DNA from: a virus
DNA length: 64,000 nucleotides
Virus record (IMG/VR): IMGVR_UViG_3300037296_000220
Span: 38,535 to 102,534 of that record
Strand: one strand, 5' to 3'
This document shows, piece by piece, positions 6,741 through 26,826 of this stretch. The notes below the pieces were generated by a model that did not search any database, was not told the origin of the DNA, and worked only from the letters and a program-made list of their open reading frames with translations. The position numbers and the translations under genes are program-made. How positions within the stretch are numbered: position 1 is the stretch's first letter; the number at the start of each line of letters is the position of its first letter.

Positions 6741-6766
6741 AAAATAAAGGGGCCGACTGGCCCCTT
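6741..6766 (-). terminator. Rho-independent terminator after ssb
   Basis: AAGGGGCC-N4-GGCCCCTT stem followed by a T-rich tail on the minus strand. Confidence 0.65.
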
Positions 6767-6779
6767 GCAGGATGGCTGC

Positions 6780-7706: not shown

Positions 7707-7797
7707 TGTTGAGTTCCTTACGTTATTTTAGAGGTTTCAATTACTGTTACGGGTTGGTTAAAACACACCAACATAGTTGTTTGTGTGAATTGATAGA

Positions 7798-8445
7798 TTA
7801 AGCTGTTTTAGCCCGGGCATCAAGCAGATTCTCTTTTCTACCTGCAGGTGATTCGTTCATGCGCAAAGAGGTCTGCTTCTCTGCCCGAACGTCAGCACCG
7901 GCCTGGATCAGCATGTCACGACGATGGCGGAAGGATTCGACAATCTCCGACAGCAGTTCGTAAATGTGATCCGCCTCCAGGTACTGCTCTTTCGCTTCCT
8001 GAAAGCCGATTGATGCCTGAATGCGCTTGGTAATGGCGCCTTCGGTAATCTTCTCGCTGTCCTGGGCAGCCAGGCGGCGGATCGCCGTGTCCATCTTGGC
8101 TTCAGTCAGCTCCATGCGCTGTTTGAACCGCTTGGCCTGCATGTGCGCTTTGGCTTTGGCGTGCGCGTAATGCACATAAAGAGCCGCCTGGTCGACGAAG
8201 GCCGACTGCATGTCCTGGATGTTGAACGTCACATCCTCCTTGAACTTGTCCATGTTGACGAAGGTTTCAGGGCGATCAGGCAGATGACCCGGTTTAGTCG
8301 TCGGTGCGGCGTTGCCCATTGCTGGGGGTGGCGTCGCTTTCTTTGGTGTTGGTGGCGCTTCAGCCTTAGTTGCCGGCTCTTCTACGCTACCGTTCTCAAT
8401 GTCGTCAAGCAGTGCGTCCAGATCCATGTCCAAATCATCTGACAT
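7798..8445 (-). CDS. UvsY-like recombination mediator (probable start MSDDLD)
   Basis: Helical C-terminal domain (TEGAIT..I, YLEA, ESFRHRRDML); next to SSB and RecA; GAGAGG RBS before ATG 8445. Confidence 0.65.
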   Translation of the reverse strand: MSDDLDMDLDALLDDIENGSVEEPATKAEAPPTPKKATPPPAMGNAAPTTKPGHLPDRPETFVNMDKFKEDVTFNIQDMQSAFVDQAALYVHYAHAKAKAHMQAKRFKQRMELTEAKMDTAIRRLAAQDSEKITEGAITKRIQASIGFQEAKEQYLEADHIYELLSEIVESFRHRRDMLIQAGADVRAEKQTSLRMNESPAGRKENLLDARAKTA

Positions 8446-8510
8446 TGTGTTGCCTCTCAGTTTGTGTGTTAGTTGTCTGTTTGTATTATCGCAAGCAAGC
8501 GACACCCCTG

Positions 8511-11500
8511 CTAGTCAAGAATGTCGACTACCTGCGCGACTGCTTCGTCGATCAGCTCACGGCGCGAGTCATCGAAGAAGCACATATTGGGGTTTATCCC
8601 AATGACGTAACTGGTGTCCTGGCCATGATCGTACTCGACCTGCCCAGCCAGTTGTTCAAACCCACCCTGCACCTCTGGCAGTAGGTAGTTGCGAGCCTTA
8701 GTGCCCATGATCAGCACGACAGCCGGGTTTAGCAGCTCAATCTCCCGCTTCAGACTTGGGCCATAGACACGGATCATTTCAGAGACATAGTCTTCCGGCA
8801 TGTCCTTTGTCTTGTTGGCCTTGATCAGCGCGGTTTGATAGAGGTCAGAGCGCTTGTAACCCGCCGCCTTGAAGCCCGGTAGGATGAAGTCGGCATAGTC
8901 GCCCTCCCCTATTTTACCCATCTTCTCATCTTTGAAGTTGCCGTTGTCGTAGATCACCATGACTCTCGGATTTTTACCCAAACGGGGCGCGAGCGAAATC
9001 TCGATAGCCAACTCATTCTCGGCCTTCATGCTGTACTTCTCGACCTCCTTCGACAATTCATCAATCACATGCGGCTGCAGGTCCAGCTTCCGATCGGCCT
9101 TTACGGCAGCAAGCATGATGCCGGGCATTGCCGCCTTCTGAGACTTGAGTCGGGTCGGGTGCAGCGGGTCATCCTGGTTCTCGATACCGGCGAACACCCC
9201 AATGTCATCGAGCATCGACTGAATCCGCTTGTTGACGTAGCGCTTATTGGTGATGTTCTCCAAAAAGTGCGCGAAGCTGGTGAAGCTGCCACCCGCCTTC
9301 TCCCGACACTCCATGATGTGCTCACTGGCGTTCTGCGTCAGGCCCTTCACCATCTGGAACGGGGCATAGATCACCCGGCGTTTGCGGTTGCTGTCGTAGC
9401 CAATCTCGAACCGACTGGTGCTGATGTTCACGTCCGGTGGCATGACGTACACACCCCGCCGCTCAGCATCTTTCACCAAGCCCATGCGTTTGTCTTCGCC
9501 CAGAATCGTCAGTGCGGCCGCAAAGAATGCCTCCGGCTTGTACACCTTCAACCACATTGCCCAGAAGGCAATGATCGCGTACTCCACCGAGTGCGACTTG
9601 TTGAAGCCGTAGCCGGCGAACTTCTCGATGATGTCGAACAGGCCCGCTGCCTCCGTCTCTTCCATCTGTGAGTGAGACTTGCACCCAGCGACCCAGCTAT
9701 CGCGCACTTTGGCCATCTGCTCAGCGTCTTTCTTGCCCATCGCTTTACGAAGGTGGTCGGCCTGAGCCATCGAGAAGCCCGCTAGATCACGCGCGACCTG
9801 CATGACCTGCTCCTGGTACACGATGACCGAATACGTCGATTCCAGGGCCGGGATCATCGAGTCATGTGGATATGTGGGGCTCATGTAACCCCGCTTAATC
9901 GCCTTGAAGTTGTCGGTTAGACCTGAGTCCAGTGGGCCTGGCCGGAACAGGGCGTTACAGGCTGACAAGTCTTCAAAGGTCAGCGGGTCATTCTCAGCCA
10001 GCTCACGCAATAGACCCCGCATACCGCCCGACTCGAACTGAAACACCCCCAACGTCTCACCCAGGCCGAAGGCTTTAAGCACTTCCGGGTCTTCGAGTGG
10101 GATTGTGGTGTAGTCCAGGTCTTCCTTGTCCTGCTCCTTGATGTAGTCTTTGGCCAGGCGCAGCAGATCCAATGTGCTCAGGCCCAGTACGTCGAGCTTG
10201 ACCAAGCCAAACTCTTCACAGCTTCGTTTATCCCAGTTGATCACCTGGTTCTCGCCCCGCTTCTCAACGATGGCTCGATTAGACAGCTCAGTGTCAGCCA
10301 CGATCACCCCGGCGGCGTGCACCCCGTAGTTGCGAAACACCTTCTGCAACTTGATGGCGTTGCCAAACAATACTGGATCTCGTTTGGCAAAATCCTTCAG
10401 CTCGGGCACTTGCTCAATGGCTTCCTCCAGGGATACCGGCTGGCCGTGATTGCTGGGGATGCGTTTGGCCACCTTCATTTCAGCTTCGGTGTAGCCCAGG
10501 GATTTGGCCACGCTACGCAGTGCCGACGAGCTGCCCAATACCCCATAGTTCGAGATTTTGGCCACGCGCTCTTTGCCGTACCGATCGGACAGGTAGTTAT
10601 ACACTTCGCCCAGTCGGGAACTCATGAAGTCAAGGTCGATGTCGGGTAAGTCCAGTCGCTCCGGGTTGATGAACCGTTCGAAGAACAGGTTGAAGCGGAT
10701 CGGATCAACGTCAGTGATGCCCATCAGGAAGGCTACGATTGAGCCGCCGACTGAGCCTCGACCAGGGCCGACGATAATACCCTGCTGCTTTGACCAGCTC
10801 ACCAGGTCATGCACCAGGAGGAAGTAGTCTTCAAAGCCCATGTCTTTCAAGATGGTCAGCTCACGCTTGAGCCGGTCCTTGTACTGAGGAATCAGCGACA
10901 CGTCCGGCTTGTAGCCCAGAAACGGCTTGTCGATGCGCTCCTTCCAGCCCTGAACGCAGAGCTTGGTCATGGCGGCGCTGGGGTTGGCCGCAAGCGAGGG
11001 CAGCGACACATCCATCTTCTCCCACTTGTACGAGAACTGATCTGCCCAGGGCCCGTTGGAATGGACATAGGCTTTGTTCAGCAGTTCAGCACCCGGCACA
11101 TCGATGAAGCCGTCGCCCTTCATCATGTGAACCCACTTCTTGAACTTCATGATGCCGTCTTTGCGACCCAAAATACCCATGTCGGAGCCACCGGCTGCAG
11201 CAAAGGGGCTGTCCAGTCGGGTGTTGAAGTTCAGGATGTTGGCCATGATGTTGCGCGAGTCTGCCATACCCTCTGCGTACAGCGTCGGACGGCTGACAAG
11301 CACTTTTCGGGAACGCATCTGTGCGCTGTTCAGAGCGCGCTTAGACACTTGACGATAGTAGAGACTGTCAGCATACGGGCACTCAATATAGAAGCGCTCA
11401 GTGTCGTTCCCGATAGCGTTTTCAATGCGATCAATGATCGCTTCGCGCTGATCATGGGCGAAGATTGAGCCGATACCACCGGTTGTTATCACCACGTTGC

Positions 11501-11891
11501 CCAGGCTGTAGGTGTGTAGCACGTCCTCCCAGCATAACCGGGGCTGACCACTGCGAATGTGGGTATCTTCGTAGGCTCTGGACAGTAGGCGAGTGACATC
11601 CTTGAACCCTTCATCGTTCATGATGTACAGGATAGGTGAAGTAAAGGTGTCTCGATTGGACTTGTCGTCGGTCTTCTCCCAATCCAGGTCGTCGACCACG
11701 TTTAAGCGAACGCCCATGATGACTTTCACATCACCGGCGTTCTGCGTGAGAATGGGTAAGGCGTTCAAGGTCATGTAATCGGCGACAGCCAGCGCTCTAT
11801 ACCCCTGCTCTTTGGCTACTGTAGCCAATTGCTTTGGGGATAAGATGCTGGCTTTGGTCGAGAAGTGCGTTTCAGCGCCAATGATGTTCAT
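8511..11891 (-). CDS. dnaE: DNA polymerase III alpha (DnaE) with C-terminal uracil-DNA-glycosylase-like domain
   Basis: GPGRGS, FERFINPER, PDIDLDF, KLDVLGL, GVFQFES, YQEQVM, YGFNKSH. Confidence 0.95.
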   Translation of the reverse strand: MNIIGAETHFSTKASILSPKQLATVAKEQGYRALAVADYMTLNALPILTQNAGDVKVIMGVRLNVVDDLDWEKTDDKSNRDTFTSPILYIMNDEGFKDVTRLLSRAYEDTHIRSGQPRLCWEDVLHTYSLGNVVITTGGIGSIFAHDQREAIIDRIENAIGNDTERFYIECPYADSLYYRQVSKRALNSAQMRSRKVLVSRPTLYAEGMADSRNIMANILNFNTRLDSPFAAAGGSDMGILGRKDGIMKFKKWVHMMKGDGFIDVPGAELLNKAYVHSNGPWADQFSYKWEKMDVSLPSLAANPSAAMTKLCVQGWKERIDKPFLGYKPDVSLIPQYKDRLKRELTILKDMGFEDYFLLVHDLVSWSKQQGIIVGPGRGSVGGSIVAFLMGITDVDPIRFNLFFERFINPERLDLPDIDLDFMSSRLGEVYNYLSDRYGKERVAKISNYGVLGSSSALRSVAKSLGYTEAEMKVAKRIPSNHGQPVSLEEAIEQVPELKDFAKRDPVLFGNAIKLQKVFRNYGVHAAGVIVADTELSNRAIVEKRGENQVINWDKRSCEEFGLVKLDVLGLSTLDLLRLAKDYIKEQDKEDLDYTTIPLEDPEVLKAFGLGETLGVFQFESGGMRGLLRELAENDPLTFEDLSACNALFRPGPLDSGLTDNFKAIKRGYMSPTYPHDSMIPALESTYSVIVYQEQVMQVARDLAGFSMAQADHLRKAMGKKDAEQMAKVRDSWVAGCKSHSQMEETEAAGLFDIIEKFAGYGFNKSHSVEYAIIAFWAMWLKVYKPEAFFAAALTILGEDKRMGLVKDAERRGVYVMPPDVNISTSRFEIGYDSNRKRRVIYAPFQMVKGLTQNASEHIMECREKAGGSFTSFAHFLENITNKRYVNKRIQSMLDDIGVFAGIENQDDPLHPTRLKSQKAAMPGIMLAAVKADRKLDLQPHVIDELSKEVEKYSMKAENELAIEISLAPRLGKNPRVMVIYDNGNFKDEKMGKIGEGDYADFILPGFKAAGYKRSDLYQTALIKANKTKDMPEDYVSEMIRVYGPSLKREIELLNPAVVLIMGTKARNYLLPEVQGGFEQLAGQVEYDHGQDTSYVIGINPNMCFFDDSRRELIDEAVAQVVDILD

Positions 11892-12396
11892 AATACACCC
11901 TGTTTTTGTCTCGTTTGATGATGCCTGACGCCTCTAAAATGTTGAGTGCCCGGCCTATTCTGTTCTCTGCCGTTCGGATCGACAGCGTGTACTGGTCTGC
12001 AAAGCTCCCGGTCAGCTTATTCACGGTAGTCCCCGCCTCATTCAGATGGAGAATTGCAAAGTCGAGACCCGTGTCGACCCCCGTAGTGCGACGCTCAGCA
12101 ATGACAGCCGGAATACTGACACCCTTCTGATTCAACCGTCTTGCGAGAGGCTGCGCTTTGCGCGAAACCTTCGTTAAATCAATAAGTTGGCTCAAGTATG
12201 CGCTGGACATTTTGGGCAACTTGTTGACGCTGGACGACACAGAGACGGTCGTACTGATGATCGTGGCTGATTGAGAACAGGTATCAGCGCATCGAGTCTG
12301 GACTTTGCAGGCCTGACACGCTTCACTATCCCGACTGCAACAGATCAATGACCCGAAGCAGCCGGGTTCATCAGTTCCCCAGTTGGATTTGGACAT
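11872..12396 (-). CDS. Cys-rich protein with possible C-terminal wHTH
   Basis: PGCFGS..CC..C..C...C N-terminus; overlaps cobS and dnaE. Confidence 0.65.
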   Translation of the reverse strand: MSKSNWGTDEPGCFGSLICCSRDSEACQACKVQTRCADTCSQSATIISTTVSVSSSVNKLPKMSSAYLSQLIDLTKVSRKAQPLARRLNQKGVSIPAVIAERRTTGVDTGLDFAILHLNEAGTTVNKLTGSFADQYTLSIRTAENRIGRALNILEASGIIKRDKNRVYYEHHWR

Positions 12397-13534
12397 ACTT
12401 CATCACCGCATCGCGTTCATCACTGGGTAAACGGTTGGCGTAGGCCAACTCGAAGCCTTTGACGAATGAGCCCTTCATGACGCCGATCTGCGCAATGCGG
12501 ATCAGCACTCGGTTACCAATGGTTAGCGAGTATTCATCAGGGTTTTCGCGCACCTTTTTGGCAATCGCAATCAACGACTTGGCGTCTTTCTCTTCGAGGC
12601 CCACAGCCAGGTTCAACATGGTTATTTCCTGGCTCTCTGCCAGATAACCCTTCTTCATGACGACGCCGAAGCGCTCGATCGTGGCGGCATCTTGCTGAAA
12701 GGTGGATTGAAAGCGCTCTCCCCCATCACCTGAGCCGTTCGTGTTGCCAGTGGCGACGAAGCGGAACATCGGGTGCGGGTCAATGCGCTGATATTGAGGC
12801 GGCGCATCGGGGATGATCAGCGGTTGACCTTCAAGCACAGCCTGATAGACAGACAGCACTGATGGGTGGCAGCGATCGTATTCGTCAGCCAGAAACACTT
12901 CGCCGTTGATCATCGCCAGTGGCAATGGCCCCAGCTCGAAGTCGGTCACAGAGATGGCATTACCTCCTTCATCGCGCTCAGCCCGGGCGATCTGACGGCC
13001 TACAATCTGCGACTCTTCCAGGTTGGCTGTGTGTTGAAGACGGCGCAGGCGACGGTTGGTTGCGGCACAGAATTGGCGATATTCAGTCGTTTTACCGACG
13101 CCGGCTTCGCCGTAGATATAGATTGGAATGTTGCGCTCCATACCCATCGCGACGGTCTTCACTTCTTCCAGGTCGGAAATGATCAACTCGTCGAAGTCGG
13201 GCACATTGGCATCAGTTTCACGTTCATCGCGGGTCAACATGATGGGTTGGCCATTGCCGTACTGCGTCTTTTTGCTGTTGCGCAGGCGATAGGCTTTATG
13301 CAGCTCTATCTTGTTGTCGGGCGTTGCGACCTCTTCAGGCTCAGCAAGGGCAGTTTTAGCAGCCATTCGCTTCTGAACTTCCTGGCGTGCAAAATCAGAA
13401 ATGGTCGGCGCGTCCGGGTATTGCTCGCTGTATTCTTCGAGGGTCAAGCTGTGAGCTTCGTCACTCATTTTCGCCAGGTGAGTCTTGATAACGTGCACCT
13501 TCTCACCGCAAATCTGACAAGTAATCTTTTCCAT
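12371..13534 (-). CDS. CobS/MoxR-like AAA+ ATPase
   Basis: GEAGVGKT, LADEYD, FRFVATGN, ERF; N-terminal CxxC..H..H zinc-finger-like motif. Confidence 0.9.
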   Translation of the reverse strand: MEKITCQICGEKVHVIKTHLAKMSDEAHSLTLEEYSEQYPDAPTISDFARQEVQKRMAAKTALAEPEEVATPDNKIELHKAYRLRNSKKTQYGNGQPIMLTRDERETDANVPDFDELIISDLEEVKTVAMGMERNIPIYIYGEAGVGKTTEYRQFCAATNRRLRRLQHTANLEESQIVGRQIARAERDEGGNAISVTDFELGPLPLAMINGEVFLADEYDRCHPSVLSVYQAVLEGQPLIIPDAPPQYQRIDPHPMFRFVATGNTNGSGDGGERFQSTFQQDAATIERFGVVMKKGYLAESQEITMLNLAVGLEEKDAKSLIAIAKKVRENPDEYSLTIGNRVLIRIAQIGVMKGSFVKGFELAYANRLPSDERDAVMKYVQIQLGN

Positions 13535-13620: not shown

Positions 13621-16002
13621 CTATTTAAGCATGTCGCCAACGTGACGAATTAGGCTGCCGCCCAACTGTTCAATGTTGTGCAGTACCTCATAGTTCTTGT
13701 AGTACCGCGACACTGAGTTGTCCTTAATGCCAATGCTGGACACGGAAATGTCTTCCTTTTCCAGTTGTTTCAGGGCGTATTGCATGGCTGTGGGGTAAGA
13801 CATGCCTCCACCGTTGCCGTAGGCGGGGTTACCATCTGACAGCACGATCAATCCCTTCTTGGAGGTTTCCTGGGTCATTAGCATGTCGCGAGCGGCCAGC
13901 AGAGCGTCCGGGTCTGCATTGCCTCCGTTGATAGGTATTTCAATGTGCCAGTCAGCGATGCGACGCTTGGCTGTTAAGCCCCAGCGTTCGTCAAACCCCT
14001 TGAAGATGGGGTGAAATACCTCCCCATAGCGGCTGAACTGGCCGGCGCCAGAGCTGTAAACCTTATGCATTTTCTGTCGAGCTACTTCGATAGCCTGCTG
14101 AGAAGGCATCTGACGATGGTCCTCCAAAACGTCCGAGCTTGGTAGTGCCGTCGCAAATCCCATGATTGCAAAGTTCACCTTGACGGCACTCAAGGACTCG
14201 GCCATTGCATAAGCCGCCTGAAAAGCCAGCTTGTACTTGCTCGACAATTCCATAGACCCACTGTTATCGATCAGTAATAGAATGGACGCGCCCTGACGCT
14301 CAACGATTCGACGTTTGCGGAATACCCGCTCTTCGCCCAATGACAGCCGGGCTATTGCGGTCGGATTCAGTCGGCCTGAGCGTTGCCCGGCTTCCCAAGA
14401 CTTCTTTTCCATAGAGCGCAGATAGCGGATTAAAGAGCGAGACACCTGACCTGTCATGCCGCCAGTGGACTTCTCAATCTCAGCCATTGACTTGGCGAGT
14501 CTGTCCTGAGAATGAACTGGTTTCACCTTCGCCTGAAGATCGCCGGCTGTTGAATACGGCGTGTAGACTGAGCCAGAATCACCCTCTCTGAACTGGTCCG
14601 CGATCATTTCTTCCAGCATGTCATCGAAGTCTTCCACATTGGCTTCGTTTTCATCCATCCCCAGAGCTACGCCAAACCCTTCATTGTTGTTTTCTTCGTC
14701 ATCGCCAGCTTCTTCGTCTGGGAACTCACCATCTGACGCTTCGTCATTGGTGCCAGAGGCCGAATTGGAACCGTCATCTTCTTCCTCTTCATCGTCACCC
14801 AGTTCGTCACTGGAGCCGGCGGCTTCGGCATCGTCATCATCTTCTCCAGGGTCAGATTCGCCACCAGGCTCGCCGCTGGCGTCATCATCGGCCCCTTCGG
14901 CTTCAGATTCACCGGCGCCCTCTCCATCTCCAGCGTCATCATCCCCAGGTTCATCATCGTCATCATCGTCCGATTCTGATACATCCTCCCCAGCGTCGTC
15001 GCTGTCCGGGTCATCGTCTGATTCAGCTCCCTCATCTTCTCCGCCGTCATCAGACTCGCTATCGCCATCCTCCTCATGTGACCCGTCGCCATCATCGTCG
15101 CCATCATCGGAGGTATCATCTGATTCAGGCTCTTTTGCTGCGCCATCGCCAGACTCAGACCCTTCTGATTCACCGCTGTCATCTGGTTCATCTGGTTGCT
15201 CCTGCCCGTTTGACCCCTGTTCAGATAGGTCTTCTTGAAATGTCTCGGCGTCGTCATTGTCACCAGCTTGATCGCTGTCTTCCGATTCACCTGCGTCACC
15301 GTCTGATTCAGGTCTTGGGTCGCGATTGGGCTTGGTGAAGAACTTGGAGTAAGCCAACTGGGTCAGTCGTAGAACGTCCCAACTGTTTTTGCATTCACTG
15401 ATCCGACGACTAAAGTCCAAGTCGTCGAGCGCTGTCATAAGCCACTCAGTTTCCGCTTTGTAGTGCTCTTCTATATAGTCAGCGACTGTTTTTTGGCCCG
15501 CCTTAGCGCGACAGCAAGCAGTGATGAGGCGGTTGAATGCTTGCGACTTCTTGGTGAGGTCAGTCTGGTCTTTCTCGATACCGGCCGTGATAATGTCAGT
15601 CAACCAAATCTCCCGGGTCCGATCCAGCTCCTTGAAGCCGCCAGCAAAGTCTTCCTCGCCCCGTATCTCGATGTAGCAGTCTTCAATGGCATTGTTTAAC
15701 CCGCCGAAAACCTCAGATTTGGACTGAGCCTCAAGTGTGGCAGCGGGGTCTGTGTACAGGATGTGACAGCACTCATGCAGCAGAAAGCCGATGATGGCGT
15801 AGCAGAACTTAGCAGAGCATTGGTCTGGCACAACAGGCAAGTTGACGAACTTAGCCTCATGCGTGAGCCCATCCCATTGAACATAAGCCTGGGCGCCAAC
15901 GTGATACACAGGGATCTTTGAGTCGGTGATTAACCGTGCGACCTTTTGAGACATGCCCCGAGTGGATTGGATTAGGCGCTTACTCGCTTGTGGAGCTGAC
16001 AT
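13621..16002 (-). CDS. CobT-like vWA protein with long acidic linker
   Basis: HECCH motif, NAIED, D/E-rich linker, SGRLN, MIDAS DNSGSM, LSDG; AAGGA RBS before ATG 16002. Confidence 0.88.
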   Translation of the reverse strand: MSAPQASKRLIQSTRGMSQKVARLITDSKIPVYHVGAQAYVQWDGLTHEAKFVNLPVVPDQCSAKFCYAIIGFLLHECCHILYTDPAATLEAQSKSEVFGGLNNAIEDCYIEIRGEEDFAGGFKELDRTREIWLTDIITAGIEKDQTDLTKKSQAFNRLITACCRAKAGQKTVADYIEEHYKAETEWLMTALDDLDFSRRISECKNSWDVLRLTQLAYSKFFTKPNRDPRPESDGDAGESEDSDQAGDNDDAETFQEDLSEQGSNGQEQPDEPDDSGESEGSESGDGAAKEPESDDTSDDGDDDGDGSHEEDGDSESDDGGEDEGAESDDDPDSDDAGEDVSESDDDDDDEPGDDDAGDGEGAGESEAEGADDDASGEPGGESDPGEDDDDAEAAGSSDELGDDEEEEDDGSNSASGTNDEASDGEFPDEEAGDDEENNNEGFGVALGMDENEANVEDFDDMLEEMIADQFREGDSGSVYTPYSTAGDLQAKVKPVHSQDRLAKSMAEIEKSTGGMTGQVSRSLIRYLRSMEKKSWEAGQRSGRLNPTAIARLSLGEERVFRKRRIVERQGASILLLIDNSGSMELSSKYKLAFQAAYAMAESLSAVKVNFAIMGFATALPSSDVLEDHRQMPSQQAIEVARQKMHKVYSSGAGQFSRYGEVFHPIFKGFDERWGLTAKRRIADWHIEIPINGGNADPDALLAARDMLMTQETSKKGLIVLSDGNPAYGNGGGMSYPTAMQYALKQLEKEDISVSSIGIKDNSVSRYYKNYEVLHNIEQLGGSLIRHVGDMLK

Positions 16003-16047
16003 AAAGAGTTCCTTACTCACTTAGTAGTTTGTGTATTATAAGCGCAT

Positions 16048-17124: not shown

Positions 17125-18234
17125 ATGAAAAGAGTTGCCACCGCGGACGACTTCATGGCCATGATGAAGTCAGGTGAACAGGACTTGGCCAACCTCAGAA
17201 CAGAAACCAACAACCCTCAACCCACCAAGGTCGCACGCACCTGGTCATTGGAGGAAGCGGTAGGCATGGTGAAGAAGCCCGCCAAGTGGGTGCTTAGTGA
17301 AGCAGGCAAAGCGGGCTATACTGACCAGGAACGCTTCTCATTGGAGGTCATCAACCACCTGAGAGACGCTGCCGGCACTCGATTCTCCAAACCTGTTGGC
17401 GCGCCAACACCCACCCTGCTGATCTCCAACTTCAAAGGCGGGGTAGGTAAATCCACGACGACGATACACCTGGCACAATACTGTGCCATCCAGGGGCTGA
17501 AAGTCCTGGTGGTAGAGCTGGACCCCCAGGCCACCACAACCGAGAACCTGCTGAACTGCTCACCAGCGACCGAGCTGACCCGAGAGCAAACCCTGGTCCC
17601 TGCCCTGCTCGATGACACGGACGACTTTCTGCCCTGCATCCAGTGGACCTACTTTCCCGGCGTAGCCATTGCCCCCGGCAACCTGTTCTTGCAGCAAGTG
17701 GACAGCAACATCGTGGATACAGTCGACGAGATGGGCGACCCAGCGACCCGGTTGTCTCGCTGCCTGGAGGAAGCAAAGGAGCACTTCGACCTGATTGTGA
17801 TCGACTGCCCACCTAACATGGGGTGGCTCACAACGAACGCTCTGTATGCAGCCGATGGGTTGCTGACCCCAGTACCCCCTGCCCTGTTTGACCGGGCCTC
17901 ATTCACTCAGTTGGCTGGTACGATCGGAACCTTTGCGCGCAACTACAACAAGGAGTTCAAACTGTTCCGCATCCTGATCACCAAGCACGGCAAGTCCACT
18001 GAGGCCCGGCGCAACGAGAAGAAGATGCGCGAGACCTACGGCGACTGGGTGATGAAAAACTGCTTCTATGTGACCACCGAGATAGAGAAGGCCAGCGCTG
18101 TCTATTCCTCTGTGTACGACCTGATGAAGCCGATGAACAAACGTGAAACCTATCAGCGAGCCCTGGACATTGTGAACCGGGTTAACGCCGAAATACTGCA
18201 AGACGTACAGCAATTGTGGGAGACCAAACTATGA
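17125..18234 (+). CDS. parA: Type Ia partition ATPase ParA
   Basis: Deviant Walker A KGGVGKST, DPQA, IDCPP; N-terminal extension. Confidence 0.93.
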   Translation: MKRVATADDFMAMMKSGEQDLANLRTETNNPQPTKVARTWSLEEAVGMVKKPAKWVLSEAGKAGYTDQERFSLEVINHLRDAAGTRFSKPVGAPTPTLLISNFKGGVGKSTTTIHLAQYCAIQGLKVLVVELDPQATTTENLLNCSPATELTREQTLVPALLDDTDDFLPCIQWTYFPGVAIAPGNLFLQQVDSNIVDTVDEMGDPATRLSRCLEEAKEHFDLIVIDCPPNMGWLTTNALYAADGLLTPVPPALFDRASFTQLAGTIGTFARNYNKEFKLFRILITKHGKSTEARRNEKKMRETYGDWVMKNCFYVTTEIEKASAVYSSVYDLMKPMNKRETYQRALDIVNRVNAEILQDVQQLWETKL

Positions 18235-19205
18235 GCGATGCATTTTCATCCGGCCCTCTGGGCACTCAGGCTTTTGCCAAGAAAGAGAAGAAAGAGGCTC
18301 CGAAGCCTGAAGGGACCAAGCCAGTGCAAAAGGTTCAAAAGCCGTCCGATCGAACCCCCAACAACCCTACTAAGGCCCCAGTATCTACTCAAAAAGGGTC
18401 CGTTAATGGAACGCTGCTGAAGGTCGACCCCGACAAGTTGAGCGTCTGGCGCTACGCTGATCGCCCTATCGAGGAAATGGGTGACCTGGCAGAGCTTGCC
18501 TCCAACATTCGCACCGTCGGTCAGATAGCTCCGGTCGTCGCTCGCCCATTAGGCTCAGGGAAATACGAACTCGTTGCCGGGCGCCGCAGATACGAAGCCT
18601 GCAAACTTGCAGGTATTGAAGTCCTTGTTCTATCACGCGAACTTTCCGATGTGGAAGCCCTGGCTATTCAGGATTCGGAGAATGATTCACGGGACTCTAT
18701 CAGCCCTGCTGCAAAAGGTATTCACTATCGTCGACTTCTTGATGATGGGGTTTTTAACTCAGTCAACCAGATGGCTATTCGTTTTGAGAAAAACAGAACC
18801 TCTTTGATAGAGCTGCTGAGGTTCGCAGATATCCCAAAAGACCTACGTGACGCTATTGGTGACCTCTCTCAAATGTCCCAACGCATGGCTAGGTTTCTGG
18901 TTCCGTTCTGTGAATCCCATAAAAACCACCTAGAATTACTAACGCCATTCGTAGACGACCTGAGAGCAGGCAAAGCTACACCAAGAATGATTGAAGATTC
19001 AATTAACCTCCCTGGTGTCTCACTTGATGAAGGAAACACTCAGATAAAAGGCAAAAACGGTGAGGCGTACTTCACGCTGAATAGAACAAAGCAGGGAGGC
19101 CTTTCGATCAATGTGCTGAAGTCTGGTAGGAGAATCTTTAATCAGGAGGTGCTTGTGAAGGCTCTGGAAGGTTTTATCGAAGACCAGATCAAAGACAGAA
19201 CCTGA
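18231..19205 (+). CDS. parB: Partition protein ParB
   Basis: GQIAPV, AGRRRY arginine patch, ENDSR, HTH; ATGA overlap with parA. Confidence 0.92.
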   Translation: MSDAFSSGPLGTQAFAKKEKKEAPKPEGTKPVQKVQKPSDRTPNNPTKAPVSTQKGSVNGTLLKVDPDKLSVWRYADRPIEEMGDLAELASNIRTVGQIAPVVARPLGSGKYELVAGRRRYEACKLAGIEVLVLSRELSDVEALAIQDSENDSRDSISPAAKGIHYRRLLDDGVFNSVNQMAIRFEKNRTSLIELLRFADIPKDLRDAIGDLSQMSQRMARFLVPFCESHKNHLELLTPFVDDLRAGKATPRMIEDSINLPGVSLDEGNTQIKGKNGEAYFTLNRTKQGGLSINVLKSGRRIFNQEVLVKALEGFIEDQIKDRT

Positions 19206-20685: not shown

Positions 20686-21369
20686 TCAGTCCAATGGAAC
20701 AATGCCTACGTCGAGCAAATGGTCGTAACCCAGGGCGGCGCCTTCCTTCCTGTAAATGTGTTCGCTACCTGGTGGGACTTCAGAACTGAAGTGGTAGATC
20801 CGATTGTCGGCCCCCGTGTGTGACACGATGGGGCGGTCATCACTCGCTGTGCCCAAATGCCAACTGTACGCGAACTCCCCCTCTTGCTTAATGGCCTCCA
20901 GCAGCCGCACCGTGTCTGCTTTGGGCAGTTCGAGGGTTCGTTCACCAATCTCAATGAGTCGATCAGCCAGACGCTGCACGATCGTGTCCGGTGTCGTTCT
21001 CATGTAGATTGCGCGCCACTCAAACTTGCCCCGTCGCGCTTGCTCGATCCAGTTGTTGACCCCGGCCAGATTCAAGGCCATCACCGGCAGCTTGTTCTGC
21101 TTCCAGATTTCATGAATCTGGTCCCAGGTGACGCCATAGCTGTAGCCGTTGTGATCGTCTTCCTCCGCAAGCTGACCGGTGCGACGCATCAGATCGAAGG
21201 TGGCCTGGTCAACGAACAGGTGTTCATCGTCACTCTCGCTCCGTTTGGGTCGAGTGGTGAGCGACTGCACCTTCGCCATGTCGTTAGGCCAGGCTTCGAC
21301 CAGAATGTTGATCAGCGTAGACTTGCCGGACCCCGAAGGGCCGGCAACCATGAGAATGGCTTTGATCAT
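20686..21369 (-). CDS. Guanylate kinase-like protein
   Basis: GPSGSGKST, SLTTRPKR, HLFV, YSYG motifs. Confidence 0.85.
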   Translation of the reverse strand: MIKAILMVAGPSGSGKSTLINILVEAWPNDMAKVQSLTTRPKRSESDDEHLFVDQATFDLMRRTGQLAEEDDHNGYSYGVTWDQIHEIWKQNKLPVMALNLAGVNNWIEQARRGKFEWRAIYMRTTPDTIVQRLADRLIEIGERTLELPKADTVRLLEAIKQEGEFAYSWHLGTASDDRPIVSHTGADNRIYHFSSEVPPGSEHIYRKEGAALGYDHLLDVGIVPLD

Positions 21370-22721
21370 ACGCCCACTCCATCTTCAGGACGTTTCTCGT
21401 CTACGGCATAGGGGCCTGAGCGAAAGCGGCTGAAACGGGGGTGACGCAAACTGCCATCAGGGGTCTCTTCATGAAATTCGACCTCAATCAGCCAACCTTT
21501 GCATCCATCCGGGTCACCTAGATTGAAATAGCCGCGTATCTGATCGGTTAAGCCAGAGACTTTGACAGCAACCCCTTTGTAATCGACAACGACTGCGCCG
21601 ACCAGGCCCACGTTTTTACCGGTGCCCTCCTCAAGGCCAATGATGGGCACGTCCACCGTCTGGCGGTCTTTAATCTTCAACCAGTCAGTTGTGCGTTTAT
21701 TGTGCCACTTGCCAGCCAAAGGCTTGATGATCACCCCTTCACCACCGCGATTGCGAACAGACTGGTAGATGCCTTCAATCTCAGCCGGGTTGCTGCACAG
21801 GTAGCGCTGAGCTACTGAGATATTGGCACAGGCGGTGGGCGCTTTCGGATCGAACAGGCCTTGCAGGCGTTTGCGACGCTGAACGTAATCTCCTTTGGTG
21901 GCGCCAGCTTTCATTTCAGCTTCGGTGATGATGTCGAACGCCTGGAAGAACACCTTGTCGGTGGAGTCCTTGCGATGCACAGCGCCCACTACCGTATTGA
22001 AGTTGTCGGAGGTCAGTTCGCCATCGAGGTAGAAGGATGAATTGAAGGTGTGACCCTTCAACTGCTCGATCACTTCAGTACCGGCGTTCAACGGCTTGCC
22101 GGTACGACTGTAGAAAATGGCATCAACGTCAGGCTGAATGTGAATCAGACAGCGCACACCGTCGAACTTCTCTTCAACTGCTACGGGGTATCCCTTGATC
22201 TTGTGGCCGTGTTTCTCATACGACTGAGCAAGCTGCACCGTGAAGTCGTCAAACAGCCCTGGGAACGCTTTGAGCGTCGATGAACGGTTGACCCCGATGC
22301 GCAGGTCGCGAGACAGAACCCGGCGCACTACGTCCCAGATCGGCTTTGACTCCTGATACTGAGTGAGTGACACAGCCAGTGTCTTGACGGCCATTGTAGC
22401 GGCGCCACCGGTCAGGCGACGTTCTTCAAGGTGACCAAGCAGCTCCAGAATTTCGTCCGCTTCCAGATCCGGGTCCGGGTCCACGTCAACCAGGTCGGCT
22501 TCAGACCATTCAAGCTGACGGATGTAGTAGTTGCGAAAGGGGTTGTACGTCAGGTCAAAGACGATCCGCAACAGATCGTCTTCCTGATGCTGGCTCAGCA
22601 GCGCGACCTTCTGTTTGCCTGTGGCTTCAGCCACCTGGTCGAGTATCGCGTGAACACGCTTCCAGTCGGAAAAGCCAAAGGTGAGAGCCAGGCTTATAGG
22701 TGCAGTTTCTTGTACGGTCAT
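21366..22721 (-). CDS. ATP-dependent DNA ligase
   Basis: EEKFDGVR, LDGEL, AFD, EGVIIK, WLKIK, SLRHPRF. Confidence 0.95.
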   Translation of the reverse strand: MTVQETAPISLALTFGFSDWKRVHAILDQVAEATGKQKVALLSQHQEDDLLRIVFDLTYNPFRNYYIRQLEWSEADLVDVDPDPDLEADEILELLGHLEERRLTGGAATMAVKTLAVSLTQYQESKPIWDVVRRVLSRDLRIGVNRSSTLKAFPGLFDDFTVQLAQSYEKHGHKIKGYPVAVEEKFDGVRCLIHIQPDVDAIFYSRTGKPLNAGTEVIEQLKGHTFNSSFYLDGELTSDNFNTVVGAVHRKDSTDKVFFQAFDIITEAEMKAGATKGDYVQRRKRLQGLFDPKAPTACANISVAQRYLCSNPAEIEGIYQSVRNRGGEGVIIKPLAGKWHNKRTTDWLKIKDRQTVDVPIIGLEEGTGKNVGLVGAVVVDYKGVAVKVSGLTDQIRGYFNLGDPDGCKGWLIEVEFHEETPDGSLRHPRFSRFRSGPYAVDEKRPEDGVGV

Positions 22722-22730: not shown

Positions 22731-23216
22731 CTACAGTTGGGTAGCTTCAATGATTTGAGCCGGGTTGAATTGAGTCAGTTCTGACTTCTTGTCAGTCTTG
22801 GTTGTTTGTTTGTTTTGAGTGGGTTTAGTCGGCTTAGAGCCGCTGATGAACGGCTTGGCATTCCAGCCACGCTGATACCCTTCGGACTGGGTGTCGACGT
22901 TGCGACGGTCCTCTTCCAAACGTTTGTCTTCCAGGGTAGGTCGGGCCTGAGCTTCGACATGCACATAGGGCACATAGTAGAGAGCCTTGCCCGCTTTTTT
23001 CTCTTCCCGAAGCATGCCTATGGCAGGGCATGACCGGTCTTTGATGCAGCCCTGGCAATCCTTAAAGCGATCCGGGCCCAGCAAAGTCTCTCCGTTGACG
23101 GTTTTGCGCAGGCTGAGGCTGATTACATTCAGGCAGACTGCATAGGCGGCGCCCGGTCGTTTGGTTGGTTCGCAGTTGATGCGGTGTGTGTTGTCCGCGC
23201 TTTTACTTAGGTGCAT
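22731..23216 (-). CDS. Cys-rich hypothetical protein
   Basis: C...YAVC...C..C....CPA pattern; in operon. Confidence 0.65.
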   Translation of the reverse strand: MHLSKSADNTHRINCEPTKRPGAAYAVCLNVISLSLRKTVNGETLLGPDRFKDCQGCIKDRSCPAIGMLREEKKAGKALYYVPYVHVEAQARPTLEDKRLEEDRRNVDTQSEGYQRGWNAKPFISGSKPTKPTQNKQTTKTDKKSELTQFNPAQIIEATQL

Positions 23217-23749
23217 CAGAAAATCCCCCAGTTGTTATAGGTTGGTTGTGGTGTGACTTCCCCTGGCAACTTTCGCTTGGGTGCGGTCGGTTGGATGTAG
23301 CATTCGCTAATTACTTTTATAAAATTCACCTTGTAGCGGGATGGCAACTCGTAAGAATGCTTAGTGGCAAAAGCCTTACCAAACATAGAGAGTTCACTCA
23401 GGCCATCGCCGCGCCATTTATTGGAAGTATCTTTCTCATGAGGTATAGCCAGATGAAGAACCCTCCAGGCCCAGTCTATAAATGACGACTCTTCTACCTT
23501 ACGAGTTGCCACCGGTGATTCATTAAAGCCGTAACGAGTAGCCAAATTGCGACGCAGCGTAAACAGGTCATGGGGCATGTCTCTGCGACCCACGCCAATC
23601 AGCTCAGTTATGCCGTCCTCGCGTCTAAGTAGTTCCATGTAAAAGGACTCCTTGACACCTGGCTCTGCGTTCAGTTTCTCACCTGCGGCCTGAACATAGC
23701 GAAATCCCCCTTTTTGAAACACGCAGTAGTTGCCCGAGTACAGAGCCAT
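23216..23749 (-). CDS. Hypothetical protein ending in YNNWGIF
   Basis: 177-aa ORF coupled to neighbours by TGATG overlaps. Confidence 0.65.
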   Translation of the reverse strand: MALYSGNYCVFQKGGFRYVQAAGEKLNAEPGVKESFYMELLRREDGITELIGVGRRDMPHDLFTLRRNLATRYGFNESPVATRKVEESSFIDWAWRVLHLAIPHEKDTSNKWRGDGLSELSMFGKAFATKHSYELPSRYKVNFIKVISECYIQPTAPKRKLPGEVTPQPTYNNWGIF

Positions 23750-24240
23750 CAGAACATACCCCAGTCGCTGTATTTTTCCGAAGGCCGTTTGGGTATCGGG
23801 TCGTTGTTGACGATGAATCCTTCAGGTGGTTCAACGCTATCGTCTTGGTGGAAGGCGCCATTCCCTAAAATGACACCATTGCGAAACTGTTGTTCAACCT
23901 TTCTAAGGATGTCGTCGCTCGCGGCAAATCTTGTGGTATTGAACAGAAGCGCGTTCACCACTGGCCTAATGTCAGTATCGAAAACGTTGTCAGTATCGAC
24001 AATGTGATAGCCCTTTTTCCGCTTTTTCTCGATGATTCTTTCAGCTTCAGCCAGGTTGTCCAAATTCCAGGCGGCAACTATTCGCTGAGTTACGGGCGAC
24101 TTGCCATTGCGACCAGAGAAACAAACGCTCAACGACTTGTCTTTGCCCTCCATCGTGATGTTGGTCACGACGTAATACTTGTCAGAGCTACCTTCGGTGC
24201 AATTTAGCAAAGTGCTATGTGCCTGAATCTTCTTGGTCAT
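23749..24240 (-). CDS. WGR-domain-like protein ending in YSDWGMF
   Basis: EGSSDKYY...SGRNG...EKKRKKGY pattern typical of WGR domains. Confidence 0.7.
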   Translation of the reverse strand: MTKKIQAHSTLLNCTEGSSDKYYVVTNITMEGKDKSLSVCFSGRNGKSPVTQRIVAAWNLDNLAEAERIIEKKRKKGYHIVDTDNVFDTDIRPVVNALLFNTTRFAASDDILRKVEQQFRNGVILGNGAFHQDDSVEPPEGFIVNNDPIPKRPSEKYSDWGMF

Positions 24241-24310: not shown

Positions 24311-25405
24311 CTATCTACCGCGCCCTGACCGCATCAGTTTGTCGCGCAGATTTGAGGCTTTGGTGGCACTGCGCGCCCCATCGTAAGCGGCCTGTATCTG
24401 AGCAGCGGTGGCATCACCCGGGTCGGTCCCTGGTGGTAAAGTCGCACTCTGCACTTCAATGCCTACTCGGGAGCGGATCAGTAGCGCCATTTCATTCATC
24501 TGGATCTGGGTCTTCTCGTCGCTGTCCCACATCATCACCAGTTTGCGGAGACCCAGGGCCTTGAGTTGAATCAATACCCCAAGCTGATCGTTGTCTTCCC
24601 GGGTCTCGTTGCCTGATAAGTGCTTGCCGAAAGAGGCCACTGCCTTAATCTCAGTGCGGCTCGCAACACCCAGCCAGTCGGTCGCGCCCTCAACTAGGGC
24701 AATCTCGGGCTCTCCCACAATCCGATCGGCGTTGTAGAGGTAGCGGCCTGAACCCGAGAGTCCCGGCGGGAAGCGGTAACGTTCACCCTCTGCAACCTCG
24801 CCGCTGATGTCCCGGCCCTGGAAGGTCATCAACTTGCCCTCCAGGTTCCGCACCGGTATCACGATGCGCTGGCTGTAGTCCTGGTACATGTCCCGCTTGT
24901 GAAACTGATAGTCGTAACCCCCGTTCTCGCAGTAATACCAGCCCGCATCGTGGGCAACGCGCAAGTCATAGCCGCGACTGACCAGGTACTGAGCCGCCCC
25001 GTAGTGCGTCAGTATCGAGACACCTTCGGGCAGTGCGACTTCGTCATCCTGGTAGCCCAGCTCTTTCTTCTTGGCGAGTTGGTCGCCGTAAATCAGAGCC
25101 AGGTCTTTAAGCTCATGGAAGAAACTGCTGGTCCGCTTGCCGTCTTTACCCAAGTGGTTGAACGCAAAGGAGAATTTGTTGAAACCAGGCTCGCCCTGGC
25201 AAGAGCCGTGAAAGCAGTTGCCCAGACCGGTTTCGGCGTTTAGATACACCTTGCCCCAACCCTCGCCGCCGCAACGTGGGCATCGAAATACCTGGAGCTG
25301 AACCCCTTTGGAGCCCAGCGATTCGCGGTAGTCGACACCCAGCTCTGCCAAGATCGTCTCGGGCGGCAAGGTGTCGAGCAGGCGAGTGAGTTGGCCGTCG
25401 CGCAT
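24311..25405 (-). CDS. DNA primase (Zn ribbon + TOPRIM)
   Basis: CPRC..CFHGSC, FQGR, LVEG.TD, WDSD, DPGD. Confidence 0.88.
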   Translation of the reverse strand: MRDGQLTRLLDTLPPETILAELGVDYRESLGSKGVQLQVFRCPRCGGEGWGKVYLNAETGLGNCFHGSCQGEPGFNKFSFAFNHLGKDGKRTSSFFHELKDLALIYGDQLAKKKELGYQDDEVALPEGVSILTHYGAAQYLVSRGYDLRVAHDAGWYYCENGGYDYQFHKRDMYQDYSQRIVIPVRNLEGKLMTFQGRDISGEVAEGERYRFPPGLSGSGRYLYNADRIVGEPEIALVEGATDWLGVASRTEIKAVASFGKHLSGNETREDNDQLGVLIQLKALGLRKLVMMWDSDEKTQIQMNEMALLIRSRVGIEVQSATLPPGTDPGDATAAQIQAAYDGARSATKASNLRDKLMRSGRGR

Positions 25406-26772
25406 CAGTTGATGGCCAGAATTTGTTCGATGAAGTTCATGGACTCGATGTTCTGCTTGATCGTGATCGAGACCTCGCCAGCCTGGTTACGCGAAGCGGC
25501 CAGGAACAGTCGGGCCTGGTTGCGTTTGCGCTCCTGCTCCGTTCGGTTGATGGAGATCATGATGTCGGCGATACGCACCTTGTTGAAATCTTCAGCCACA
25601 TCGGTGTCTTTGGTGGTCTCCGCTTTAGCGCCGTCCCGGTTAGCCTGGGTCGCGGTCAGCATGGCCAGGTTGTACTCCTGAGCGATGGAGCGCAGCCCGA
25701 TCCAGATGCTTTTACTGTTTTCGATGGCGTCATTGGTCTTCTCGTCCGGGGCCATGATGTCAGCGTAGTCGGGCACGACCATGTCGTAGGTGATGCCTTT
25801 AGCCATCTGCTTGTCGAGAATCCGTCGCAATTGCATGGGCTTGAAGGAGCCAGTCGGCACTTCGAGAATGTCAATTCGACCCACTTTACCCGCGATGCCG
25901 CGTGACTCGACCTTGCGGTGCACATCATTGATCCGGGTGCGTATTTCGTCCATCGTCAGTCCGCTGACGTTCGCATCCATACGATCAGCAACGATTGACC
26001 CTGCGACTTCAGCAGTGACGTAAAAGACGTTGAAGCCAGCCAGAGAGGCCAGTATCGAGAAATGGATAAGAGCGGTCGACTTACCCCGCTTCGCAGCCCC
26101 CAAAAACACTGACAGCTCTTTACGGCCCCAACCTTTGTGGTACAGCAGGTTATCGAGCTGCTTAATGCCTGTCGTGATGCCCTGCGGCTTGATCAGCCCG
26201 GACGCTACGTCTTTACGAACATTGGTGCGTTGCTCGACCGTGCTCCAGTATTCAACGATGTCGTCTGTGTCCACGTCGACACCGGTGCGAAAGGCCTGCT
26301 CCATCTTCTTCTTGATGTCTTCAAAACGATGTTGTTGCAGCAGGTCGACACACTCAATCATCGTCTCTTGAATGGCCTGATGTAGAGAGAACTTACTGAT
26401 TTCGTCCTCAACGTGACGCTGACCAGCCAGATTCTCCTTGTGAATCAGTTTGAACTGCGTGAACACGTCGGCCTTCACGTCAGATCGGATCATGTTGCTA
26501 GCTATGGCGTCCTTTAGCAGTTGTGACCAGACGCTTACGCTCGATGGCACGGTGTTGTATTTGGTGAAGTGATCAACCGCCAGCTTAATCAGAATCCGGG
26601 TGCTCAGCGTGTCGAACAGCTCCGGTTGAATCAGATCGATGGTGCGCCGTGCGAACGATTCATCACGCATAAAGTGTGCAGCGATCTTGGTCTGAAACGC
26701 TTCATCAAAGTCGAAGGTTACGGGCGGCATACTGGGAGTAGCTGCGGCGCTTGGGGCAGTCTGTGTGGTCAC
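25405..26772 (-). CDS. dnaB: DnaB-like replicative helicase (probable GTG start)
   Basis: ITTG..QLD, GAAKRGKS, DYADIM, TATQANR, VAED. Confidence 0.9.
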   Translation of the reverse strand: MTTQTAPSAAATPSMPPVTFDFDEAFQTKIAAHFMRDESFARRTIDLIQPELFDTLSTRILIKLAVDHFTKYNTVPSSVSVWSQLLKDAIASNMIRSDVKADVFTQFKLIHKENLAGQRHVEDEISKFSLHQAIQETMIECVDLLQQHRFEDIKKKMEQAFRTGVDVDTDDIVEYWSTVEQRTNVRKDVASGLIKPQGITTGIKQLDNLLYHKGWGRKELSVFLGAAKRGKSTALIHFSILASLAGFNVFYVTAEVAGSIVADRMDANVSGLTMDEIRTRINDVHRKVESRGIAGKVGRIDILEVPTGSFKPMQLRRILDKQMAKGITYDMVVPDYADIMAPDEKTNDAIENSKSIWIGLRSIAQEYNLAMLTATQANRDGAKAETTKDTDVAEDFNKVRIADIMISINRTEQERKRNQARLFLAASRNQAGEVSITIKQNIESMNFIEQILAIN

Positions 26773-26826
26773 TCTGGATAACTCCAACTTAGTTGTCTGT
26801 GTGTTTTAGAATCATAGCGCAAGCGT

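Follow-up and report, generated by a model that had tools for sequence, protein, structure and literature searches.

The window analyzed here, 64,000 nucleotides long, comprises bases 38,535-102,534 (the right 64 kb) of a virus record (IMG/VR record IMGVR_UViG_3300037296_000220) that is complete at 102,534 bp and has direct terminal repeats; the minus strand holds nearly all of its genes. Three minus-strand open reading frames (ORFs) in this window encode proteins that end in a similar short aromatic peptide, referred to below as the tag. Two of them are adjacent. The ORF at 23749-24240 encodes a 163-residue protein with a folded part (residues 1-121), a disordered linker (residues 122-156) and then the tag, Y-S-D-W-G-M-F, at 23752-23772, followed by TGA. 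The ORF at 23216-23749, whose stop codon overlaps the start of the next gene by 1 nt, encodes a 177-residue orphan protein with the tag Y-N-N-W-G-I-F at 23219-23239, again followed by TGA. The third ORF, at 276-683, lies directly downstream of the gene for SbcC and encodes a 135-residue orphan whose tag, Y-P-E-Y-G-I-W-G, occupies 279-302 and precedes TAA.

A preliminary description of this DNA had reported the three C-termini (KYSDWGMF, TYNNWGIF and GYPEYGIWG) just as we find them, and its regular expression, Y..[WY]G.[FW].?$, run on the 766 ORFs of at least 40 residues in the whole genome, matches exactly those three genes. Its count of three was nevertheless too low, as the genome encodes six tagged proteins and the nine genomes of the group surveyed here encode about 56; the upstream Tyr of its motif is specific to the source genome, and the conserved core is aromatic-Gly-x-aromatic at the very end of the protein. 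We searched with the core pattern [FWY]-G-x-[FW]-(0-1 residue)-stop. On the coding (minus) strand it identifies six proteins whose genes form three adjacent pairs. The fourth tagged protein (genome 38134-38910; 258 residues) ends LPDFGQWA; its N-terminal part is encoded by window positions 1-376 and its tag is located 400 nt left of the window. The fifth (genome 27062-27469, ending KIGWGEW) and the sixth (genome 27454-27774, ending LGWGQW, a Zn-ribbon protein) are both encoded on the minus strand about 11 kb left of the window. Terminal copies expected by chance were derived from the internal frequency of the motif in the same proteins, using a greedy gene set and a Poisson test. Five of the six tagged proteins are in that gene set, compared with 0.10 expected (P ~1e-7), and the core pattern occurs in 1 of the 492 ORFs that are not genes.

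Distribution and conservation of the tag

The primase of the source genome is 30-38% identical to those of SSU5 (Salmonella), of Klebsiella and E. coli phage-plasmids and of nickie (Pseudomonas), and likewise to those of BUCTxx99 (Stenotrophomonas), JGB6 (Xanthomonas) and RHEph10/B1VFA (Rhizobium). The genomes with a related primase are all roughly 105-120 kb and constitute a group of DnaE-encoding phages and phage-plasmids (SSU5 / nickie / RHEph10) with about 45 gene families in common; the hosts named in the relatives' records are Proteobacteria. Eight relatives were retrieved whole and scanned with the same pattern: nickie, G001 (an IMG/VR contig, estimated to be 54% complete), BUCTxx99, JGB6, RHEph10, B1VFA, SSU5 and pJN2-26. 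Together with the source genome they make up the nine genomes surveyed. Three phages outside the group, G002, Vibrio phage ICP2 and Roseobacter phage CRP-810, served as controls.

All eight relatives encode tagged proteins, from 2 to 11 per genome, and each lineage has its own dialect (YGxW, NPxFGxF, FGxW[AS] or WATW). Nickie has 10, with endings that include DFGGWA, FGTWA, FGSWA, GFGAFA, YGLFG, WGTW, YGIW, DFGHFS and WGAFG; G001 has three (FGSW, FGEW, FGAW); BUCTxx99 has 11 of the form [E/N]YGxW, nine of them from consecutive small genes; JGB6 has six (P[ED]xYGxW); RHEph10 has seven (Yxx[NH]PxFG[RM]F); B1VFA has nine ([NH]PxFGxF); and SSU5 and pJN2-26 have two each, ending W-A-T-W. These genomes lie outside the set from which the motif was defined, and by the internal-frequency method the terminal copies far exceed expectation: 8 observed versus 0.13 expected in nickie (P 1e-12), 3 versus 0.04 in G001, 8 versus 0.16 in BUCTxx99 (P 1e-11), 4 versus 0.12 in RHEph10, 4 versus 0.09 in JGB6 and 5 versus 0.16 in B1VFA. 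The enrichment is thus 25- to 60-fold in seven independent genomes, with Poisson P values of 1e-6 to 1e-12 for each genome with the Gly form, and the same pattern finds no tagged protein in G002, ICP2 or CRP-810. G002 is an unrelated 95-kb phage that shares DnaE, DnaB, ligase, RecA and SbcCD with the group. A comparison with background had been proposed in the preliminary description as a test of the tag, and the excess in the source genome and its relatives rules out a chance origin.

In the aligned logo of the 56 tags, the first and last aromatic positions are aromatic in 100%, and the Gly is present in 91% (otherwise Ala). The last aromatic residue is itself the C-terminus in 82%, the remainder adding A, G or S. 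There is no constraint on the residue between the Gly and the last aromatic (position -1: R 9, T 8, A 8, G 7, D 5, E 4, Q 3), and upstream of the core N/G/D, then P/E, then P/N are favored, with position -4 occupied by N 17, G 9, D 8, T 5, A 5, E 3 and Q 2 times. Tagged genes tend to cluster, with 20 of 47 neighboring pairs separated by under 300 nt. A look for conserved internal copies in core proteins found none. A 294-residue nickie protein (67145-68029; L021:7145-8029), encoded after the tagged gene that follows SbcC, ends KYDIGGWA, in which Ile replaces the first aromatic residue; the strict pattern thus undercounts tagged proteins. Separately, a 41-residue out-of-frame ORF within the DnaE gene of the window (11489-11614, minus strand) ends PTAWATW, the SSU5 dialect, which is probably a coincidence.

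The nucleotide sequence under the tag varies. Gly is encoded by all four of its codons, the aromatic positions switch among TTY, TAY and TGG, each of the three stop codons is represented, and several tags precede intergenic gaps of 15-70 nt with their own Shine-Dalgarno (SD) sequence or stand at the ends of operons. This variation indicates selection on the peptide rather than on the DNA, and led us to reject a DNA-level element or a by-product of an SD sequence.

Nor do the tagged proteins share a common ancestor that we could detect. All-against-all BLASTP and iterative hidden Markov models (HMMs) with the last eight residues masked revealed no links among the six proteins of the source genome, ruling out paralogy and agreeing with the earlier impression that their bodies are unrelated. 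Across the surveyed genomes, masked iterative HMMs joined tagged proteins only to other tagged proteins, in ten two-member families with about 35 singletons; about 45 mutually unrelated families are thus tagged, and these searches found no untagged homologue in the surveyed genomes. The Zn-ribbon protein of the source genome (genome 27454-27774) and that of nickie (85740-86036), for instance, match with E=6e-4 and are both tagged. In the 20 residues before the tag Pro accounts for 9.5%, versus 3.9% in the protein bodies, in keeping with the polar or Pro-rich linker noted previously.

Where an orthologue could be found, the tag was kept, which was the second test that the preliminary description had put forward. 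The ending Y-x-x-N-x-x-F-G-x-F is retained in nine of nine WGR orthologues from Rhizobium/Ensifer phage-plasmids, down to 42% identity. Among 1.84 billion cluster representatives (50% identity), the tag ends 91 of the 109 stand-alone WGR-profile matches of 120-300 residues, and the 18 exceptions include unrelated WGR proteins (matching in the WGR domain only) and fragments without a C-terminus. A DNA pattern for P-E-N-Y-G-x-W-stop matched three of 2.9 million IMG/VR viral contigs; two are relatives of BUCTxx99 and the third match is not at the end of an ORF. In eight orthologous tags compared between BUCTxx99 and its IMG/VR relatives, Y, G and W are fixed while x and the linker change.

Tagged proteins and their gene neighborhood

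The protein encoded at 23749-24240 had been described as carrying a WGR-like nucleic acid-binding domain, and its predicted structure bears that out. The sequence match to Pfam WGR (PF05406), at E=0.003 and 18 bits, falls below the cut-off of 22. In the ESM Atlas its feature score to viral WGR clusters is 0.92, its structure aligns with template-modeling scores of 0.64/0.70, and 25 of 30 Atlas matches are WGR clusters. An AlphaFold 2 model built from an 84-sequence alignment has an overall pLDDT (predicted local distance difference test) of 74.8 and a core of strands at residues 5-14, 21-30 and 35-44, a helix at 62-75 and a strand at 78-88 (pLDDT 84-94), followed by two more helices up to residue 121 and no secondary structure from 122 to 163. 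The top Foldseek matches of the model are PARP2 WGR domains bound to DNA breaks (probability 0.94-0.99), at E-values of 0.007-0.05 that are above the tool's line of 0.001. On the basis of the Atlas matches and the predicted structure, the protein is assigned as a WGR-domain protein with a disordered linker of about 40 residues before the tag.

In seven of the nine genomes the gene that follows the primase bears the tag, in the Gly form in the source genome, nickie, G001, RHEph10 and B1VFA, and in the WATW form in SSU5 and pJN2-26; the positional orthologues in RHEph10 and B1VFA match Pfam WGR at 58 and 46 bits. Two adjacent tagged proteins of BUCTxx99 are stand-alone BRCT domains (31 bits each). 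A second recurrent position is next to SbcC: the gene directly downstream of it is tagged in the source genome, nickie, SSU5 and pJN2-26, and the Rhizobium phages have a tagged gene within 1-1.5 kb of it. In the window, the SbcC stop codon (TGA, 696-698) and the start of the 135-residue tagged ORF (681-683) are in the same frame, separated by a 12-nt gap on the minus strand. The 177-residue protein (23216-23749) has no match in Pfam, PHROG, or the phage, plasmid or IMG/VR collections, and its Atlas model is of low confidence; apart from the WGR and BRCT proteins, the other tagged proteins have no Pfam or PHROG match. Neither this protein nor its tagged neighbor at 23749-24240 has a close homologue in the phage, plasmid and IMG/VR collections or among 5.8 billion proteins.

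The tagged pair at 23216-24240 is embedded in genes for DNA replication. To one side are a DnaG-type primase (24311-25405, minus strand) and a DnaB helicase (25405-26787), both assigned from PHROG/Pfam, and to the other a Cys-rich conserved protein (22731-23216, minus strand), present in at least six genomes of the group, that separates the tagged genes from an ATP-dependent DNA ligase (21366-22721, minus strand; Pfam A_M + OB_2) two genes downstream of the pair. PHROG/Pfam searches further identified ParA/ParB (17125-19205), a CobT-like vWA protein (13621-16020, minus strand), a CobS-like AAA+ protein of the MoxR type (12371-13534), a DnaE-type polymerase (8511-11891, minus strand), a FEN nuclease (5778-6728, minus strand) and a RecA/UvsX-like protein (4650-5768, minus strand), as well as PhoH and, further left, ribonucleotide reductase and thymidylate synthase. 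A gp32-like single-stranded DNA-binding protein (SSB) is encoded at 6780-7706 on the minus strand (Pfam gp32, E=7e-30), SbcD at 2995-4065 and the SbcC/Rad50-like ATPase at 696-2633 (minus strand). A T4-style recombination set (gp32-like SSB, RecA/UvsX-like protein and FEN nuclease) in the minus-strand interval 4650-8505 adjoins a bacterial-type DnaE. Directly after DnaE, at 7798-8505, lies the gene for a helical 235-residue core protein, possibly a UvsY-like mediator, which all eight relatives share.

A proposed docking role for the tag and its alternatives

As judged from the sequences, the features described above are the signature of a shared docking or addressing motif. In the mechanism that we propose, [N/P]-[P/E]-x-aromatic-Gly-x-aromatic at the C-terminus, or one residue before it, would be a short linear docking motif, presented at the tip of a flexible, Pro-rich or charged linker, by which a varying set of unrelated proteins would be held to one shared receptor pocket. 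The pocket would take two aromatic side chains three residues apart, with the glycine permitting a turn between them. The tagged set would combine modules that bind DNA ends or nicks (WGR, BRCT and the Zn-ribbon protein) with many small accessory proteins; WGR proteins are tagged in the source genome and the Rhizobium phages, and stand-alone BRCT proteins in the Stenotrophomonas phages. The receptor, or reader, may lie within the DnaB-primase-ligase-CobT/S-DnaE-gp32-UvsX-SbcCD replication/recombination module. Each lineage has one dialect, distinct from those of other lineages, a pattern suggesting a reader that evolves together with its tags and is most probably a phage product. A role as a C-terminal docking motif is very likely, and given docking, a phage-encoded reader is the probable case; for the whole combination of docking motif, common receptor and phage-encoded reader, we consider the balance to be only mildly favorable. 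The earlier proposal of an addressing system stands with respect to the tag itself, which is real, selected as a peptide, conserved, enriched and found on unrelated proteins after a disordered linker; binding and a single hub are what we infer from it.

Several observations weigh against this interpretation. The receptor, the binding and the existence of a single reader are all postulated from sequence patterns. The source genome itself contains three sub-dialects (WG[IM]F, [YF]G[IQ]W[GA] and WG[QE]W), which calls for a tolerant pocket and makes co-evolution a weaker argument for a reader encoded by the phage. The phage phylogeny is congruent with host taxonomy in this sample, and a host reader that differs between host clades is therefore compatible with the data. 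SbcCD, DnaE, DnaB and ligase are also present in the untagged G002, and CobS/CobT in the untagged ICP2 and CRP-810. Finally, ten or more partners would be unusual for a single enzyme such as the ligase.

An alternative that we regard as unlikely is that the tag is a divergent binding motif for the host beta sliding clamp and that the tagged proteins share the clamp used by the phage DnaE. The tag does resemble C-terminal clamp motifs such as Q-L-G-L-F of Pol II, with a hydrophobic residue at -3, a small one at -2 and an aromatic end, and WGR, BRCT and ligase-type functions are typical of clamp partners. The genome encodes DnaE and we found no clamp gene in it: a search of the complete genome with the clamp families PF00712, PF02768 and PF02916 gave nothing at E<=1, so the clamp in use is probably that of the host. 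Two candidates for a hidden phage clamp, a 233-residue protein encoded upstream of the helicase gene and a 252-residue core protein, were rejected, as they have no sequence match in the PDB and their consensus looks helical, as was the 235-residue protein encoded after DnaE, which is a helical, UvsY-like core protein. An OB-type SSB family is likewise absent from the genome. The details of the tag nevertheless do not fit the clamp motif. Where that motif has Gln at position 1, the tags have N, G or D, with Q in 2 of 56, and where it has Leu/Met at position 4, the tags have any residue, often a charged one. The phage polymerases carry a conventional motif of their own, unlike the tag, at the expected internal site: SQKAAMPGIM in the DnaE of the window (9114-9143, minus strand) is clamp-binding-like and aligns with DQLELLPG / DQKELLPG in the relatives, and all polymerases of the group have Q-x-[EA]-[LA]-[LM] at this site (Q-x-E-L-L/M in its conventional form), which we take to be the counterpart of QADMF, the clamp motif in E. 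coli alpha. The motif by which the polymerases would bind the clamp thus differs from the tag. In addition, Proteobacteria have a highly conserved clamp pocket, whereas the tag varies by lineage, and the tag pattern tested (PENYGxW-stop) is absent from viral contigs outside the group.

The remaining alternatives appear less probable still. Non-polar C-terminal tails act as degrons for ClpXP, FtsH and Lon, and a host or phage protease might read the aromatic C-terminus and limit protein lifetime, which would suit exposed, disordered ends and the many small accessory proteins that possibly need timing. Known degrons are loose, however, whereas three positions of the tag are fixed in 91-100% of the 56 tags and in 91 cluster representatives; the WGR protein, a constitutive replication protein in most lineages, would be an odd target, and dialects that vary by lineage stand in contrast to proteases as highly conserved as ClpX, Lon and FtsH; together these points make this reading improbable. 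The cargo of encapsulins carries a short, C-terminal, Gly-containing hydrophobic peptide on unrelated proteins, and by analogy the tag could load cargo into the HK97-type head for injection, the structural module being conserved across the group. We consider this very improbable: the tagged genes lie in replication/recombination and accessory modules and not in the head module, the known tagged folds are DNA-end binders that work with replication enzymes, and up to 11 proteins of 50-260 residues would compete with DNA for head volume. The capsid interior had been named among possible hubs, and it is the least likely of those candidates because the recognizable tagged folds are WGR/BRCT DNA-end modules of the replication/recombination module. 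Least probable of all, to the point of being nearly negligible, is that the ending is not a protein signal but an overlapping DNA or RNA element (the SD sequence of the next gene or translational coupling), a termination effect of the nascent peptide, or a helix C-cap. Many tagged genes do overlap the next gene at their end (ATGA or TAATG), and TGG-GGN shares the G-richness of an SD sequence, but the codons vary freely while the residues are fixed, several tags stand before the SD-bearing gaps or at the operon ends already described, other tightly coupled genes of the same genomes lack the tag, and what precedes the tag is not a helix but 40 residues of disordered, Pro-rich sequence.

Candidate readers, known parallels and significance

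Taken one at a time, the possible readers are all unlikely. In falling order of probability they are another host protein, the CobT-like vWA protein with CobS, some other part of the replisome (DnaE, DnaB, primase, the gp32-like or the UvsY-like protein), SbcCD and the ligase, these two being equal, and the host beta clamp. The CobS/CobT machine, proposed earlier as the hub, stays among the candidates, and it is not singled out by the data. Its genes are placed inside the replication module in every lineage examined and in ICP2. The CobT-like protein has a group-specific N-terminal part, an acidic low-complexity middle (approximately residues 340-430, with D/E runs) and a C-terminal vWA domain (CobT_C/VWA, residues 566-797) whose metal ion-dependent adhesion site (MIDAS), D-x-S-G-S-M (DNSGSM), is kept in seven of seven aligned orthologues. 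As a sufficient correlate of the tag CobS/CobT was rejected, given that ICP2 and CRP-810 carry the genes without the tag. In phage T5S1-k141_653015 (PQ867845.1; L079:4067-7196), four small ORFs that flank cobS/cobT end in [ILV]-P-x-E-F-F-[STK] (HILPGEFFS, HLVPGEFFS, LYIPREFFT and FVLPMEFFK), and at least two look paralogous by a shared N-terminus. Here a CobS/CobT phage that does not belong to the SSU5 group may have a common aromatic ending of a second kind, distinct from the tag.

The N-terminal domain of the ligase was rejected as a group-specific reader, since the same domain occurs in ligases from unrelated phages (Vibrio, Pseudomonas jumbo and Enterococcus) and does not discriminate. In bacteria, WGR is fused to the same type of ligase (A_M + OB_2; Atlas cluster of 95 members; P0085). 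NrdA as a reader, through mimicry of the NrdB tail, was also dismissed, as the NrdB tails of the relatives (DDEF, DDDNF, SQFADL) fall outside the dialects. The NrdB small subunit of the source genome (genome 34529-35545; L028:14529-15545), encoded about 3 kb left of the window, ends EDWGYQDLRPWGGLLAA; this ending (PWGGLLAA) combines a tag-like W-G-G-L with an ssrA-like LAA, unlike the NrdB tails of the relatives.

Full-text literature searches found no published description of the tag, and the known systems that resemble it differ in informative ways. In Nbs1, an adaptor with BRCT domains, an N-F-K-x-F-x-K motif near the C-terminus binds the Mre11/Rad50 nuclease. The phage BRCT and WGR proteins similarly carry N-aromatic-G-x-aromatic, and one conserved tagged gene directly follows SbcC; unlike the tag, however, the Nbs1 motif is not at the extreme end, there is no homology, and SbcCD is also present in the untagged G002. 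The SSB C-terminal tip (D-D-D-I-P-F) and the acidic, Phe-ended tails of T7 gp2.5/gp4 are, like the tag, strictly C-terminal with an aromatic end after a disordered linker, and they mediate many replisome contacts. There, a single hub bears the tail and its many partners supply the pockets, whereas here many proteins carry the tail; the tag logo has no acidic run followed by I/L-P-F, and the tail of the phage gp32-like SSB (6780-7706) is acidic, of an ordinary kind, and untagged. HbYX/GQYL endings of proteasome activators have a penultimate Tyr and one free last residue, a form that the tags do not take, as most end on the aromatic residue itself; their receptor is a proteasome-type ring, and Proteobacteria are not known to have a 20S proteasome.

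Closer in architecture are the clamp tails of T4 and RB69, in which the PIP-like tail of gp43 binds the gp45 clamp (PDB entry 1b8h; PMC3012046). As with the tag, a short aromatic or hydrophobic peptide ends a flexible tail on several unrelated DNA-metabolism proteins of one phage, and there, as for the bacterial beta-clamp motif QL[SD]LF, it plugs into a single hydrophobic hub pocket. The present genome differs in having no clamp gene, tags without Gln or a fixed aliphatic residue at position 4, far more tagged proteins, mostly small orphans, and a polymerase with a separate conventional motif. In the Ku system, a vWA-like domain in Ku80 reads APLF-type R-x-L-P-x-W aromatic motifs of repair factors, and XLF-like C-terminal motifs occur in XLF (KKPRGLFS), WRN (KRGGLFS) and MRI (REIFFS), although XLF-like peptides failed to bind a truncated Ku heterodimer in an in vitro assay (PMC4831024). 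These motifs also place a terminal aromatic residue on diverse DNA-end-processing proteins; G-L-F-S and G-G-L-F-S resemble G-x-[WF]-[AS] of nickie, and the replication module of the group includes a vWA protein with an intact MIDAS alongside tagged WGR/BRCT folds. In contrast, the Ku system is eukaryotic and its partners are non-homologous, and the vWA protein of the phages is CobT-like, its partner being an AAA+ protein of the MoxR type instead of a Ku barrel.

One bolder possibility, which we consider doubtful, is that the tagged proteins form a private adaptor network for DNA-end metabolism, with WGR, BRCT and Zn-ribbon sensors and fast-changing effectors assembled on one phage-encoded platform, either CobT-like/CobS or SbcCD. 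If this were true with the CobT-like/MoxR-type platform, phage cobS/cobT would gain a role as a Ku-vWA-like docking and remodeling machine; with the SbcCD platform, the tagged proteins would be bacterial-virus counterparts of Nbs1.

Eukaryotes have well-mapped terminal docking motifs that several proteins share, but in phage biology such motifs are rare, with the T4 clamp tails and the SSB tips as the main examples. Here, a core of four residues marks 2-11 proteins per genome, most of them without known function, across a widespread group; its members include the SSU5-like phage-plasmids found in Salmonella, E. coli and Klebsiella as well as lytic phages that infect plant pathogens and rhizobia. 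For annotating these genomes, the tag offers a simple rule by which functionally linked genes can be recognized; it is also a direct experimental handle, and naming its reader should give dozens of orphan proteins a cellular address. It may also explain the unexplained cobS/cobT genes of phages, or reveal accessory adaptors of the phage Mre11/Rad50.

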